Origin: Escherichia phage vB_EcoS_I14
Sequence record: PP892525.1
Direction: 5' to 3' (one strand)
Length of the DNA stretch: 64,000 bases
A program made the position numbers and the translations under genes. Of the stretch, positions 1 through 26,342 are shown piece by piece. Every line of letters begins with the position of its first letter. Within the stretch, counting starts at the first letter, position 1. The notes below the pieces were generated by a model. It saw only the letters and a list, made by a program, of their open reading frames with translations. It did no database searches and had not been told where the DNA came from.

Positions 1-43
1 ACACCCACGCGTACGTAATCCAAAGAAATTGGCAAAAGTCAAA

Positions 44-292
44 TTAACGCATAGAAGGGTCATCAAACCTGTGTTCTGGTCTGAACTCACGGAATCTCTT
101 CCGCGACGCCCGAGATCCATCCGACCACTCCCGCTCAAACTCCGCACGTTTCTCGTCAAACTTACGCTCCCTTTCCGCAATCTCCCGCGTCACTCCCGCA
201 ATATATTCCCGCAGCTTACGTTCAATTGCCGCAGTCGTCCCGAAAGCTCCCGCGAGTATCCCGATAATAAAAGCAATTACAATACTAAACAT
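44..292 (-). CDS. small single-pass membrane protein (hypothetical)
   Basis: 82-aa ORF; N-terminal hydrophobic helix (FSIVIAFIIGILAGAF) followed by strongly charged Arg/Glu-rich tail; ATG overlaps stop of upstream mini-ORF (TAATG). The overlapping + ORF 29..415 is Arg/Pro-rich low complexity and judged an antisense shadow. Confidence 0.45.
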   Translation of the reverse strand: MFSIVIAFIIGILAGAFGTTAAIERKLREYIAGVTREIAERERKFDEKRAEFEREWSDGSRASRKRFREFRPEHRFDDPSMR

Positions 293-321
293 TACTTATA
301 TTCCCGCAGCTTACGTTCAAT
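202..321. repeat. 25-bp direct repeat, two copies (about 202..226 and 297..321)
   Basis: tatattcccgcagcttacgttcaat occurs twice about 95 bp apart; on the - strand both copies encode the IERKLREY motif shared by two adjacent small ORFs. Confidence 0.8.
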
Positions 322-396
322 ACGAGCTAAATGGTTATCCAAGACACATTGTCCTAGAATTACCACAACTAATAAAACAATAATTATTACTCCCAT
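292..396 (-). CDS. mini membrane peptide, 34 aa (hypothetical, below ORF-track cutoff)
   Basis: Hand translation of - strand: MGVIIIVLLVVVILGQCVLDNHLARIERKLREYK; hydrophobic helix plus IERKLREY motif; start and stop both sit in TAATG overlaps with neighbours. Confidence 0.3.
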   Translation of the reverse strand: MGVIIIVLLVVVILGQCVLDNHLARIERKLREYK

Positions 397-524
397 TATA
401 GCCACCCCGCCATAGCTGCTAACCAAAAACCTACGAAGATTAGGAATAATACAAAACCAAATCCGTAAATATTAATCCACGCTTCGTACACTTCTCCACG
501 CCTGTTCTTTCTTTTATTTGACAT
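396..524 (-). CDS. mini membrane peptide, 42 aa (hypothetical, below ORF-track cutoff)
   Basis: Hand translation of - strand: MSNKRKNRRGEVYEAWINIYGFGFVLFLIFVGFWLAAMAGWL; basic N-terminus then hydrophobic helix; GGAG about 10 nt upstream of ATG; stop overlaps next start. Confidence 0.3.
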   Translation of the reverse strand: MSNKRKNRRGEVYEAWINIYGFGFVLFLIFVGFWLAAMAGWL

Positions 525-589
525 ATCTTTTATGCTCCTATGAGTCTGGTATTTGACATATCTTTTATGCTCCTATGAGTCTGGTATTT
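520..589. repeat. perfect 35-bp tandem duplication (2 head-to-tail copies)
   Basis: gacatatcttttatgctcctatgagtctggtattt repeated exactly; on the - strand each copy carries GGAG + ATG, so the initiation region of the 396..524 ORF is duplicated (upstream copy gives a 9-codon mini-ORF). Confidence 0.85.
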
Positions 590-722
590 GGAATACCCTA
601 GCAATTGCAGTGATTAGTATAAATATTCTTATTACACCTTCCCTAGTGTCTTGTGTGGCATCCTGGACTAATTCTGCGCTAGGATTATCTTAAGTGGTGA
701 TAGTTACTAAGGTCGTTTTTAC

Positions 723-956
723 TTAGAAAACTCCCTCACATGTATTCCCTTCAGTAAAGTAGCTTACGGGGGCCCAAAAAGACCCATAGGCCATAATTGG
801 TGACACCAAAAACATATCCCCTTTCCTATCAAAAACATTAGCCTTATATTTCACATGATCTTGTACATAGTAGGCCTCACATTTAATATCTTTAGGACCA
901 AAAGTAGAGCAAGCCGAAAGAAGTACCACTGCCATAGCTAAAAATAATTTTTTCAT
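723..956 (-). CDS. llp: lytic-conversion lipoprotein Llp (receptor-blocking superinfection exclusion)
   Basis: 77-aa ORF with signal peptide and lipobox (LLSAC); divergently placed next to the 640-aa receptor-binding protein gene, as in T5 llp-oad locus; length matches T5 Llp precursor (recalled). Confidence 0.8.
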   Translation of the reverse strand: MKKLFLAMAVVLLSACSTFGPKDIKCEAYYVQDHVKYKANVFDRKGDMFLVSPIMAYGSFWAPVSYFTEGNTCEGVF

Positions 957-987: not shown

Positions 988-1016
988 ATTATACAGAATT
1001 ATAGCAATATAGGCAA
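988..1016 (-). promoter_or_regulatory. candidate promoter for llp (TTGCCT-17-TATAAT on - strand)
   Basis: Reverse complement of 988..1016 gives -35 TTGCCT, 17-nt spacer, -10 TATAAT, about 30 nt upstream of llp ATG. Confidence 0.4.
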
Positions 1017-1035: not shown

Positions 1036-2958
1036 ATGAGTTTTTTCGCTGGCAAGCTAAATAATAAATCTATACTCTCTCTGCGCAGGGGTAGTGGCGG
1101 AGATACTAATCAACATATTAATCCTGACTCTCAGACCATATTCCATTCAGATATGCCTCATGTTATCATAACAGAAACTCACTCCACAGGGTTAAGGCTA
1201 GATCAAGGTGCTGGTGACTATTACTGGTCTGAAATGCCTAGCAGAATTACCCAGTTACATAATAATGATCCTAATAGGGTTGTGCTGACGGAGATTGAGT
1301 TCTCAGATGGCTCTAGACATATGTTATCCGGTATGTCTATGGGGGTAGGTGCTAAGGCGTACGGAATTATAAATCCACAGGTCATGTCCCAGGGTGGCTT
1401 AAAAACACAAATAACAGCTAGTGCTGATCTATCCCTTGATGTAGGTTATTTTAATAGCGGTACTAGCGGTACGATCCCCCAGAAGCTTAGAGATGGTACT
1501 GGATGTCAGCATATGTTTGGGGCTTTTAGTGGACGTAGAGGGTTTGCATCTAGTGCAATGTACTTAGGGGGTGCCGCTCTTTATAAGTCTGCCTGGGATG
1601 GTTCAGGATATGTAGTGCCGGATTCAGGAACTCTAACTATCCCTAGCGACTACGTTAGGCATCCCGGAGCTAGAAACTTTGGATTTAACGCCATATATGT
1701 TCGTGGAAGGTCTTGTAATAGAGTTCTTTACGGTATGGAGGGGCCTAACTATACTACTGCTGGAGCCGTGCACGGTGCTTCTAGTTCTGGGGCTCTTAAC
1801 TTTATGTCTAATCCTAGCAATCCCTCGGCTCCTAAGTACACTGTAGGTTTCGCACGTGCTGATCCCACTAACTATGCTTATTGGGAAAGTATGGGTGATC
1901 CGAATGATGCTGCTAATGGGCCTATAGGTATATATAGTGAGCACCTCGGTATTTATCCATCTAAAATTACCTGGTATGTTACCAATCTAGTATACAATGG
2001 CTCAGGATACAATATTGATAGTGGGCTATTTACTGGCAATGATATTAAACTTAGTCCAAGAGAATTTATTATTAAAGGGGTTAACGTTAATAATACATCC
2101 TGGAAGTTTATCAACTTTATAGAGAAAAACTTCAATGTAGGGAGCAGAGCTGATTTTCGTGATGTTGGGTGTAACTTGAGTATGGGTGCCCCCTCTACTG
2201 GAGTTTCTGGAATAGCCACTTTTGGATTACCAACTGCGGAGAGCAATAACACTCCTAGTATTAAGGGAGGTAACGTTGGCGGTTTGCACACTAATGTTGT
2301 TAGTATTTATAACTTTTTACCTTCAGCATCTTGGTATGTTTCTAGTAATCCTCCAAAAATAGGGAGTAATTATGGGGACGTTTGGAGTGAGAATCTTTTA
2401 CCTTTAAGACTTCTAGGTGGTAGCGGAAGTACTGTACTATCTGGTAACATAGTATTTCAGGGTAATGGTTCCGTGCATGTTGGCACCGTGGGACTAGATC
2501 TTAATAGTAGTAGAAATGGCGCAATTGTATGTACTATGGAGTTCCTGGATGACACATGGTTGTCTGCAGGAGGTATTGGCTGCTTTAATCCTACGGAAAT
2601 GCTATCTAAAGGCGCTGAATATGGCGATAGTAGGTTTAGAATGGGTGGCAATACTATTGATAAAAAACTTCACCAAATATTATCCCTACCTGCAGGAGAA
2701 TATGTACCATTTTTTACTATTAAAGGTACTGTAGTAAATGCTTGTAAATTACAGGCTGCTGGGTATACTCCAACTCCGTACTGGGTATCTGGGTTGCCAG
2801 GATCCGTAGGTCAAATGGGTTACTATACTCTAACATACTATATGAGAAATGATGGGAATAATAATATCTCTATTTGGTTAGAATCCTCTATGAGCAATAT
2901 AATTGGCATGAAAGCATGCTTACCAAATATTAAACTTATAATTCAACGCCTTACCTAA
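1036..2958 (+). CDS. oad: receptor-binding tail protein pb5 (FhuA-binding type)
   Basis: 640-aa ORF, same length and N-terminus (MSFFAGKL...) as T5 pb5 as I recall it; adjacent divergent llp; GGAG RBS. Confidence 0.85.
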
Positions 2959-23444: not shown

Positions 23445-23867
23445 ATGAGTACTGAAAATAGAGTTATAGACTTAGTGATAGATGAGAAAGTACCTTATGG
23501 TCTAATGATGCAATTCTTAGATGTTGATGATAGTACTTATCCACCTACAAATACCCCTGTTAACTTAACAGGGTATTCTCTAAGGGGTACTATAAAGACC
23601 GGGCTTGATGAGAACGCGGAAACTTTGGCATCTTTTACTACTAAAATTATTGATGCTGCTCAAGGTGCTATAGCTATAAGTTTACCCGTAGAGGCGGTAG
23701 ATAATATTGGTGAAAAAGCCACCAAAGAGAGAGATAAGTATAACCCTCGCCAACGTTTTGCAGGATACTATGATATAATTATGACACGAGATGTCATAGG
23801 ATCAGCTATTAGCTCTTTTCGTATAATGGAGGGTAAAGTATTTATCAGTGATGGGGTAACTAGATAA
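23445..23867 (+). CDS. collar protein (p132-like, Ig-like fold)
   Basis: 140 aa ORF immediately upstream of lateral fibre gene; length equals T5 p132 (recalled). Confidence 0.6.
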
Positions 23868-26342
23868 TGGCAATAACTACTAAGATTATTGTACAACAAA
23901 TATTAAATATTGATGATACTAAAGCTACTGCTAGTAAATTTCCTAGATACACAGTAACTCTTGGAAACTCTATTAGCTCTATTACTGCTAATGAGTTAGT
24001 ATCCTCTATAGAGGCCGCTGCTAAGTCTGCTGCGGCTGCAAAAGATTCTGAAATAGCTGCTAAAACCTCAGAACTTAATGCTAAGAACTCTGAACAGGAA
24101 GCTGCTATTTCTGCTGGAGCTTCTGAAGCTTCTGCTACTCAGTCTGCTACCTCTGCTACTCAGTCCGCAGCGTCAGCCAATAAGTCTGCAGAATCCGCTG
24201 CCTCAGCTAAAATATCCGAGACTAATGCGAAGACTAGTGAAACTAATGCGAAGACTAGTGAAACTAACTCGAAGACTAGTGAAACTAATGCTGACGCATC
24301 CGCTGCTGCTGCAAAAATTAGTGAGACTAATGCAAAGGCAAGTGAGACTAATGCAGCTCAATCAGCAGCTGATGCAAAACTTAGCGAGGGTAACTCAAAG
24401 GTCAGTGAGACTAATGCAGCTCAATCAGCAGCTGATTCTAGCGGTTTTAGGAATGAGGCGGAAATATTTTCTGGGCAAGCTGCTGCATCGGCATCTGCGG
24501 CAAAAATCTCCGAAACCAATGCAAAAAACTCGGAAACAAATGCTAAGGCTAGTGAAACTACTGCTGCAGGATCTGCAACTTCCGCCAGTCAATCTGTAAC
24601 TACTATTCAAGGACTTAAATCAGATGTTGAGCAGTTAAAATCTGATACCCAGGCTATTAAAAATAGTGCTGTAACAGAGACAACAGCTTTAAAAGCAGAT
24701 GTTGAGCAGTTAAAATCTGATACCAGATGTTGAGCAGTTAAAATCTGATACCCAGGCTATTAAAAATAGTGCTGTAACAGAGACAACAGCTTTAAAAGCA
24801 GATGTTGAGCAGTTAAAATCTGATACACAAGGTATTAAGGATAGCGCGGTATCTGAGACAACAACTTTAAAAAACCAAGCTGCTGCTTCTGCTACACAAG
24901 CGGGTAACAGTGCTGTTGAGGCCGGGCAACAAGCTAGCAATGCTGCTGGTAGTGCAAATAGCTCTAAAGCAGAAGCAGACCGTGCAAAAGCAGAAGCAGA
25001 CCGTGCGGAAGTTGCAGCTAACAGGGCTCCCGATCTTCAACCATTCCCTGACGTATGGATTCCATTTAATGACTCACTTGATATGCTTGCAGGTTATTCA
25101 CCTGGCTATAAGAAAATAACAGTTGGTGAAGATGTTATTACAATGCCTTCTGATAAGGTTGTTAATTTCTCGCGTGCGTCAAATGCAACATACATAAATA
25201 AGCATGGTGAATTTTGCATTGCTAATATCGATGAGCCTAGATTTGAAAAGCAAGGACTCTTAATTGAAGGCCAGCGGACAAACTATATCACTTATAGTAA
25301 TGACCCCGCTTCATTAAATACGGATAAATACCGTAGTGATGTTACTTATAATATTGATAAGTATGGTTTTGCATATGCAACGGCGACAGCAAACGAAAAA
25401 GCACAAAGTGAGTATCCTTCATTATTTTATTGTGAAACAGTAAATGCAATCAACTGTCAGCAAAATGAATACGTTTCTTTATCTATACGAGTAAAGGCAA
25501 ACTTGGGTATCTATATCACACCGCAATTTTATTTAGTAGGTGAGGACGGAGGTCTTATTCTCGGCGCTAGATCTTTCATAAGTTGCAAAACTGGTGAAGT
25601 TTCTTCTGTAGTAGAAGGGAGAGGTACTATAACACATAGAATATATAGAGAAGACAACGGATGGTTGAAAGTTGAAGCTACATGTAAATTTGTAGAACGT
25701 GGTGGTAACTCTATTGGATCTGTAAATTATTGTAGGGAGAATGATCAACCTGTACAGGTTGGGGATACAATATCATTTTGTACCCCACAATTTGAAAAAG
25801 GGTTTTGTGCATCCTCCTTCATTATTACGGGGAGTACACCTGCAACAAGGGCTGTAGATTATATTACTATACCTGCAAGAAATAATTTCTCAGGAACTAA
25901 TATTTCATTACTTGCTGAGGTAAGTATTAACTGGGATAGCTTTCAACTAAATAATACATACCCGATGATAATTGATAATAAGCCATACTACGTAGAAGGA
26001 AAAGCATTTGTTGCGGAATTTGATAGTACCTCCACTACACCTTACGCGTATGTGGTAAATGAGGATGGATCAACTATTTTGTCTAGGGGTTATTCATTTG
26101 AAAAACAATTTTCTCCCCATGTATTTGGTTTTATTTTTAGTGGTAATGGAGATGTCACCTCGTTTGTTAATGGGAATAAGGGTGGTACCTCACACGGTTC
26201 TACCTGGAAAGGAACGGACTCGGACTCGTCAGTAGAAATAGGCGGTAGACCTTCAGATTCAACTAAATTGTACGGTCATATTCGTAACCTTAGAATATGG
26301 AATAGAGTATTAACAGATAGTCAAATGCGGGAGAAAGTTTAA
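23867..26342 (+). pseudogene. lateral (L-shaped) tail fibre shaft gene interrupted by a frameshifting 28-bp tandem duplication
   Basis: ORF 23867..24733 (Ser/Ala/Thr/Asn-rich SETNAKTSETNAK repeats) stops at DTRC*; the original frame continues (frame of ORF 25083..26342) once a 28-nt duplicated segment near 24697..24724 is removed, giving an 815-codon gene. Confidence 0.7.
24622..24875 (+). repeat. tandem 75-nt coding repeats (25-aa DVEQLKSDTQAIKNSAVTETTALKA units) with an extra 28-nt partial copy
   Basis: gatgttgagcagttaaaatctgatac occurs four times; copies 1 and 3 are full 75-nt units, copy 2 is truncated after 26 nt + ca, copy 4 diverges. Confidence 0.8.

Follow-up and report, generated by a model that had tools for sequence, protein, structure and literature searches.

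Small early membrane proteins that a virulent phage can do without in the laboratory are exemplified by Imm and Sp of phage T4, which act in superinfection exclusion and offer a functional analogy to the genes considered here, although no sequence or profile similarity links the two sets. The closest described system is an array of mini-genes of phage T5, annotated in 1994 as orf1-orf4 (X75922) and in 2005 as T5.159-T5.162 (NC_005859), where each entry carries the remark "contains single transmembrane domain". In T5, the order is llp, a spacer, the coupled mini-genes with overlapping stop and start codons, and the terminal repeat, which begins 41 nt past orf4 in the T5 annotation. A search of the literature on T5.159-162, the neighbors of llp, T5 spanins and holins, and genome-wide screens recovered only the CRISPRi-ART tables as bearing on these genes, and no data on expression, localization, or phenotype. 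In that screen, T5.159-162, like llp, scored 'Not Fit' (PMC11879866 supplement), but so did many structural genes, so that the score is weak evidence of dispensability.

The mini-gene array beside llp and its relatives

The window analyzed here, a 64,000-nt stretch of the genome of Escherichia phage vB_EcoS_I14 (PP892525.1), comes from a T5-like phage (Tequintavirus) and corresponds to the right end of the unique region, in an orientation reversed with respect to T5; in alignment, its position 1 is where the AKFV33 record ends. The plus strand carries oad/pb5 (1036..2958 in the ORF listing), and the minus strand carries llp (723..956), which encodes a 77-aa receptor-blocking lipoprotein of the FhuA/T5 type (phrog_1119, E=5.5e-19; llp/lpp in the T5 annotation). 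A promoter, TTGCCT-17-TATAAT, is predicted on the minus strand at 988..1016, 32 nt upstream of llp, which equals the distance of the promoter annotated in T5 X75922. ORF A (396..524), ORF B (292..396), and ORF C (44..292) succeed one another on the llp strand, with overlapping stop and start codons, in the interval that separates llp from the terminal repeat. The ORF listing bears out the first-pass annotation of this DNA, which had described three minus-strand ORFs of 42, 34, and 82 aa joined by TAATG motifs: the stop codon of A (TAA 398..396) overlaps the start of B (ATG 396..394), and that of B (TAA 294..292) overlaps the start of C (ATG 292..290), which is an overlap of -1 at each junction. 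The length of B is counted from its ATG; a TTG-extended form has 44 aa (292..426).

The same annotation had presented the trio as unannotated, and for the gene family this does not hold, given that the genes were recorded in T5 in 1994 (X75922 orf1-4) and again as T5.159-162, and that homologs are annotated in many relatives. The profile matches span essentially the entire products: residues 1-42 of ORF A align with positions 1-42 of the 42 in phrog_8596 (E=1.7e-30), residues 1-34 of ORF B with positions 1-34 of the 35 in phrog_6369 (E=6e-18), and residues 1-82 of ORF C with positions 1-81 of the 81 in phrog_6447 (E=1.2e-42), a family labeled 'membrane protein'. The same PHROG labels are attached to T5.159-162 in a published re-annotation (CRISPRi-ART supplement, PMC11879866). 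A megablast search of 50,697 phage records yielded 363 T5-like records that match the trio region; the exact ORF A sequence is present on Logan/ENA contigs, the exact ORF B protein is annotated in NBEco002, L6jm, and Sen-E22, and all 80 homologs of ORF C come from T5-like phages. The trio is, then, an already known yet uncharacterized gene cluster of T5-like phages, homologous to T5.159, T5.160, and T5.162.

Outside this family, nothing was recovered. Searches for remote homologs in Pfam, NCBIfam, PADLOC, PDB sequences, and a word-indexed set of 5.8 billion proteins returned only the T5-like family or noise, and a profile search run exhaustively against 1.84 billion representatives produced nothing beyond the trio's own T5-like family. 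As for defense and superinfection-exclusion families, PADLOC gave no matches at E<=1, Pfam and NCBIfam gave sub-threshold noise, and the PDB gave none.

The layout of the window differs from that of T5 in gene number. T5 has four genes and the window three, the missing one being T5.161 (phrog_5851), which is cleanly absent in the alignment with T5 and has no tblastn match in any part of the 64 kb. The end of ORF B also differs, reading IERKLREYK in the window and IETLLTEKRK in T5. By contrast, the three-gene layout itself is shared with vB_Sen-E22, where it is annotated identically (42-34-81 aa), and with AKFV33, Lindwurm, NBEco002, and several IMG/VR and Logan contigs. The named three-gene relatives have the TAATG overlaps and an ORF B protein identical to that of the window, but their ORF C has 81 aa rather than 82, and they possess neither of the two repeats discussed below. 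They also carry llp and receptor-binding protein (RBP) genes of the BtuB type (a BF23-like module), whereas those of the window are of the T5/FhuA type. A third form, with five genes, occurs in SUT_E1520, SP01, and one IMG/VR genome; in SUT_E1520 and SP01, the additional members are T5.161 and B', a 51-aa paralog of B that also belongs to phrog_6369 (z=6-10). To judge from these comparisons, the copy number of the array appears to vary through paralogy, with three-, four-, and five-gene versions in existence.

The combination of a FhuA-type llp with a three-gene array that the named relatives carry beside BtuB-type modules marks the window as a mosaic. Alignments indicate a SUT_E1520-like segment across llp, the spacer, and ORF A, joined to an AKFV33-like ORF B, with T5.161 absent as in the AKFV33 lineage. 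The closest genome overall is that of SUT_E1520, at 95.7% identity over 11.4 kb, and nothing nearer was found; a near-identical sister genome, sought for dating the two repeat events described below, was likewise not found.

The 198-nt spacer between llp and ORF A (525..722, minus strand) has a history of its own. In another T5-like locus, L033, it holds an intact ORF of 89 aa (phrog_16810, E=3.8e-42) that ends just past the ORF A ATG, whereas the corresponding frame in the window, T5, and SUT_E1520 is interrupted by stops and by deletions of 24 nt and 54 nt; a remnant is still detectable in the window at 674..552 (tblastn E=2e-7). This comparison shows the "intergenic" spacer of T5 to be a decayed phrog_16810 gene.

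At the opposite end of the array, ORF C is variable: at least four alternative versions of its C-terminal 15 residues exist, and some relatives have frameshifted or internally deleted alleles, which speaks for dispensability. An HNH homing-endonuclease gene is found in certain relatives, joined to the end of ORF C via an ATGA overlap.

Selection, coupling, and transcription

Pooled pairwise pN/pS values from 26 homologous loci support the reality of the three frames. For ORF A, the value is 0.18 in the annotated frame and about 0.9-1.6 in the shifted sense frames; for ORF C, the respective values are 0.32 and about 0.9-1.2; for ORF B, the annotated frame gives 0.17, the shifted sense frames being uninformative owing to the small number of variants. 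The stop/start overlaps are retained in all 26 loci that possess the ORF A start motif, as -1/-1 in three-gene and -1/-4/-8 in four-gene arrays. Purifying selection of this kind implies that the trio matters in nature, so that the term 'dispensable' should be restricted to laboratory conditions. The first-pass annotation had proposed conservation among T5-like genomes as its own check, and this check comes out in its favor, the trio being homologous, coupled, under purifying selection, and matched by PHROG profiles over the full length. Taken together, these data support the trio as genuine, translationally coupled genes for single-helix membrane proteins adjoining llp, insofar as comparative sequence analysis can establish this.

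The longest ORF in the interval lies on the opposite strand (29..415, plus strand, 128 aa), and its frame is free of stops in most relatives, which might suggest that this is the actual gene and that the small minus-strand ORFs occur by chance. We regard this as extremely improbable. The pN/pS of the plus-strand frame is 0.97 across ORF C, compared with 0.32 for ORF C itself, the sample across ORF B being too small to discriminate; furthermore, the minus-strand ORFs fit PHROG profiles over their full length, and the stop/start overlaps of the minus-strand chain are conserved. The plus-strand ORF was accordingly rejected on pN/pS and is a by-product of the GA-rich codons of ORF C, the composition of which alone keeps it open in the relatives.

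Neither a terminator nor a convincing additional promoter is predicted between llp and ORF A, and none is annotated there in T5 (NC_005859), so that the trio is most simply placed within the early llp transcription unit; llp, A, B, and C probably form one transcription unit that would be driven by the llp promoter. No Rfam family or tRNA was found in the region or in the spacer.

The explanation that we favor, and consider likely, is that the trio belongs to a right-end accessory cluster of coupled mini-genes for single-pass inner-membrane proteins, expressed early from the llp promoter, and that the repeats found in it are private to the strain. Under this explanation, A would be T5.159, B would be T5.160 in its AKFV33-type allele, and C would be T5.162, in the three-gene form that lacks T5.161; the genes would be transcribed together with llp from its early promoter, and ribosomes would load at the Shine-Dalgarno (SD) sequence of ORF A and then reach B and, subsequently, C via the TAATG overlaps.

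From the standpoint of gene discovery, the value of the locus is modest, since it consists of a recognized, if uncharacterized, cluster together with repeats that are private to one genome or artifacts. Nevertheless, annotation of the mini-genes is inconsistent, with only A annotated in AKFV33, only C in Lindwurm, and all three in Sen-E22, and the selection data justify annotating them uniformly.

Repeats private to this record

The features that had drawn attention to the locus, namely, the repeats, the overlaps, and the duplication, are not due to chance. The initiation region of ORF A lies within a perfect tandem duplication of 35 bp, in line with the original description: TRF reports 515..590 with 2.2 copies and 100% matches, and the two copies (555..589 and 520..554, minus strand, followed by a partial AAATA) are identical letter by letter, although a general repeat search reports the duplication in a shifted register at 94%. 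The genuine initiation signals of ORF A, both SD and ATG, are those of the downstream copy (520..554). The upstream copy (555..589) supplies, as had been noted, a second AGGAG-ATG and, with it, a 9-codon upstream ORF (uORF), MSNTRLIGA* (559..530, ATG 559..557; 24 aa and 530..604 in the TTG-extended form), the stop codon of which sits 5 nt upstream of the ORF A ATG.

The duplication has no counterpart elsewhere. Its junction occurs in 0 of 50,697 phage records and in 0 IMG/VR contigs; among 31 loci compared, the window alone carries it and all 30 others lack it; and alignments show it to be absent from T5, SUT_E1520, AKFV33, Sen-E22, and Lindwurm. Even L033, which combines the same ORF A allele with T5-type RBP and llp genes and a three-gene array, has neither this duplication nor the patch in ORF C described below. 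In SP01, the identical 35-nt unit of the ORF A initiation region occurs once, in the context CC-AAATA-CCAGACTCATAGGAGCATAAAAGATATGTC-AAATA-AAAG, and the unit is single in the five-gene array of SUT_E1520 as well. A 5-nt direct repeat, AAATA, thus flanks the duplicated unit and constitutes a classic substrate for replication slippage, which points to slippage between these microhomologies, on an allele like that of SP01, as the origin of the duplication. An alternative origin, by unequal crossover of a FhuA-type with a BtuB-type parent, was considered and rejected, because the copies are identical to each other and match the SP01 allele, while the segment differs between the two module types at several sites.

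The doubled initiation region, to which the first-pass annotation had drawn attention, is not supported as a designed feature, on account of the confinement of the duplication to a single genome, its slippage anatomy, and the presence of a second, gene-breaking duplication in the same window. As a conserved regulatory leader peptide, the uORF was sought in the 31 loci, the phage collection, and IMG/VR, and is present in the window alone, so that a leader function has no evolutionary support. In an RNA fold model, the two copies pair slightly with each other and both AUGs are buried, the unpaired probability changing from 0.22 to 0.00; the duplication probably has little net effect on ORF A.

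The second repeat, 25 bp in length, was also confirmed exactly as described, at 202-226 within ORF C and at 297-321 at the 3' end of ORF B (both on the minus strand). The chance expectation of such a repeat in 1 kb is estimated at about 4e-10. The further proposal that the encoded IERKLREY is a common feature of the last two genes is contradicted by the relatives, in which ORF C reads AAINKHR(E/K)Y, and the ORF B sequence appears in C only in the window. More precisely, among the other loci with an ORF C, this juxtamembrane motif is AAINKHR(E/K)Y in 24 of 25 and AAIDRHRKY in the remaining one, basic in every case, and two family alignments show at least 90% conservation of residues N24 and H27. 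The window departs from this near-invariant motif in having AAIERKLREY (from AAINKHREY, with one codon gained), and it alone carries ATTGAACGTAAGCTGCGGGAATATA at the motif site. A 56-nt probe spanning the patch has no match in the phage collection, and the exact 82-aa protein is missing from about 15 billion sequences. Conversely, an ORF B ending in ...ARIERKLREYK* is native to the AKFV33 lineage, which identifies the copy at 297..321 as the donor and that at 202..226 as the recipient. That B and C are ancient paralogs with a common IERKLREY was rejected, the similarity between them having z=1.6 in the relatives, as against 9.3 in the window. Comparison of the alleles indicates, instead, that gene conversion or template switching copied a short patch from the 3' end of B into C, over a distance of 95 nt. 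The event would have made use of ATT and CGGGAATATA, identities already present on the flanks, and overwritten the INKH motif.

A further perfect tandem duplication, of 28 bp, lies far from the array, within a tail-fiber gene (24696..24751). The relatives are 28 nt shorter at this site, and removal of one copy restores an 815-aa tail-fiber ORF from a 288-aa truncation. With two private perfect duplications in one record, one of them destructive, the 35-bp duplication is better viewed as a mutational or technical accident than as an evolved leader. The 35-bp duplication and the 25-bp identity are, accordingly, recent strain-specific mutations or artifacts and no part of the gene system.

Between mutation and artifact, we lean toward the former. 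The proposition that the 35-bp duplication, the 25-bp patch, and the 28-bp duplication all stem from sequencing or assembly, the real phage being single-copy throughout, is improbable, though not far-fetched: all three features are perfect, private to the record, and found in no relative, one of them breaks an 815-aa gene, and the exact ORF C protein recurs in none of about 15 billion sequences. Yet a tandem duplication at AAATA microhomology is a standard product of replication slippage, a frame-keeping 12-nt substitution with a +3 indel would be odd as an assembly error, and lateral tail-fiber loss is a common laboratory adaptation in T5-like phages, which also counts against artifacts. The artifact proposition concerns the window-specific features only and leaves the gene identities of the trio untouched. 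In either case, the record is a candidate for resequencing, given that it contains two short perfect duplications and that one of them disrupts a tail-fiber gene.

Membrane topology and possible functions

Each of the three peptides contains, as the first reading of the sequence had it, a single hydrophobic helix, with one 19-residue window apiece at a mean Kyte-Doolittle value of 2.3-3.1; T5 likewise has one transmembrane (TM) helix in each counterpart of A, B, and C. The arrangement of charge differs among the three. ORF A starts with a basic N-terminus (MSNKRKNRRGE...), including the cluster KRKNRR, and is hydrophobic in its C-terminal half, where the TM helix lies, whereas B and C are hydrophobic from the very start and continue into charged sequence, the tail of B being short. 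By the positive-inside rule alone, A is probably N-in, with a cytoplasmic N-terminus, and B and C are probably N-out, with their charged helical tails in the cytoplasm. An AF2 model of ORF C, based on a 14-sequence alignment, shows an unbroken helix at residues 2-70 followed by a disordered tail, with a mean pLDDT of 72.7.

The position of the trio next to llp, the probable co-transcription with it, and the membrane character of the peptides all invite the reading that had been proposed at the outset, that the trio is an unrecognized accessory of Llp in superinfection exclusion or receptor masking, with the duplicated leader uORF tuning its expression; with only 5 nt between the uORF stop and the start codon of ORF A, termination-reinitiation would even be permitted. 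We find this reading unlikely in view of several lines of evidence. The genes can hardly count as unrecognized after their annotation in 1994 and 2005, and a function of the leader, which is present in 1 of 31 loci and in none of the 50,697 records or IMG/VR contigs, has no evolutionary support. An identical array accompanies the non-homologous llp/RBP modules of the FhuA type (T5) and the BtuB type (BF23), which makes a receptor-specific role unlikely. Moreover, co-expression of Llp and FhuA alone gives the blocking complex (PMC9586334), the 'Not Fit' score of the T5.159-162 knockdowns likewise points away from a receptor-specific role, and B and C would probably have their charged domains in the cytoplasm, away from both FhuA and Llp.

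A role in lysis timing, as holin-, antiholin-, or spanin-like proteins, is a still weaker contender and appears quite improbable. Holins, antiholins, and i-spanins are typically small proteins that have a single TM helix and a charged tail, ORF C is predicted to be a membrane-anchored long helix, and the lipoprotein gene upstream superficially resembles that of an o-spanin partner. But T5-like phages encode a separate holin-endolysin-Rz-like spanin cassette elsewhere in the genome (PMC11664485), which in itself lowers the standing of a lysis role, and the function of Llp has been solved and is a different one, receptor blocking (PMC9586334). The trio has no match to lysis families in PHROG, Pfam, or NCBIfam, holin families included, and there is no endolysin gene in its neighborhood. 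To judge by the title of Decker 1994, the trio lies in an early unit with llp, and knockdown of T5.159-162 was without effect in the T5 screen (PMC11879866 supplement).

Among functions consistent with the accessory-cluster explanation, our tentative guess is a laboratory-dispensable, receptor-independent modification of the inner membrane or envelope that takes place alongside Llp-mediated lytic conversion rather than in aid of Llp. A more specific version, on which we would not place much weight, is that the array of three to five genes (phrog_8596/6369/5851/6447) could add to T5 lytic conversion a second layer that does not depend on the receptor. The peptides would then block a step common to T5-like infections or TonB-dependent traffic, candidate targets being the formation of the inner-membrane channel for DNA entry and energization by ExbBD/TonB, on which the binding of Llp to FhuA appears to depend; an arms race among related phages would then account for the gain and loss of paralogs. 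The considerations behind this version are limited to the position of the array, its timing, its membrane location, and purifying selection. Being compact, dispensable, and under purifying selection, the four-PHROG cluster would be an easy target for deletion or expression in work on T5 lytic conversion.

Flanks and alleles of the mini-gene array

The spacer between llp and ORF A, the first of the three mini membrane-protein genes (window 525..740, - strand), is a decayed phrog_16810 gene, as it is in T5 and in SUT_E1520, the phage with the closest overall genome. An intact, 89-aa version of this gene is found at 1242..1511 of L033, a Logan contig (ERR2868471) with the same ORF A allele and three-gene array, and its stop there overlaps with the start of ORF A. 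Several relatives carry, at the other end of the array, a 157-aa HNH homing endonuclease (phrog_99) joined to the end of ORF C via an ATGA overlap (homologous loci L032, 2162..2635; L034, 1224..1697; and L007, 1443..1916; also L019, from SP01, and L022), and in the HNH-bearing relatives, the tail of ORF C differs at the C-terminus (...RFRMSESGDKPVDRRSS). The mosaicism and conversion tracts at this locus may be driven by the neighbouring homing endonuclease. An insertion reduces ORF C to 74 aa in Lindwurm and the homologous locus L027, and the ORF C of L031, which has an internal deletion, comprises 55 aa. Annotation of the mini-genes in GenBank is uneven: the AKFV33 record (HQ665011) includes only ORF A, that of Lindwurm (OK143207) only ORF C, and that of Sen-E22 (MT311645) all three.

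Promoter-like and antisense features

A promoter-like TTAGCA-16-TATAAT match lies at window 395..422, on the - strand. Its -10 hexamer arises from the ORF A/B stop-start overlap CTATAATGG, a sequence that varies among relatives (ATTTAATGG in some, ATATAATGG in others), and the match is probably due to chance. A 128-aa antisense ORF (window 29..415, + strand), open in most relatives, is kept open because ORF C abounds in GAG, CGG and AAG codons; the pN/pS of the antisense frame, measured across ORF C, is ~1, and we therefore rejected this ORF as a gene.

The window end

About 30 nt at the window end (within 1..43) are unlike those of all relatives (ACGTACGCGTGGGTGT vs ACACATGGAGGTGTGT). Given that the AKFV33 record stops at the same base as window position 1 and that, in T5, 41 nt separate orf4 from the start of the right terminal repeat, position 1 probably marks where a genome record ends, at the boundary of the terminal repeat.

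A tandem duplication in a tail-fibre gene

A tail-fibre gene (context 23867..26342, + strand) is frameshifted and cut to 288 aa by a perfect 28-bp tandem duplication within it, two copies of CAGATGTTGAGCAGTTAAAATCTGATAC at window 24696..24751. Relatives are 28 nt shorter at this site, and removal of one copy in silico restores an 815-aa ORF; the duplication arose either by mutation during laboratory adaptation or through faulty assembly. Imperfect tandem repeats of 21, 63 and 75 nt, detected with TRF, are densely packed in the tail-fibre coding region (window 24100..25010), and this block likely represents a repetitive fibre shaft.
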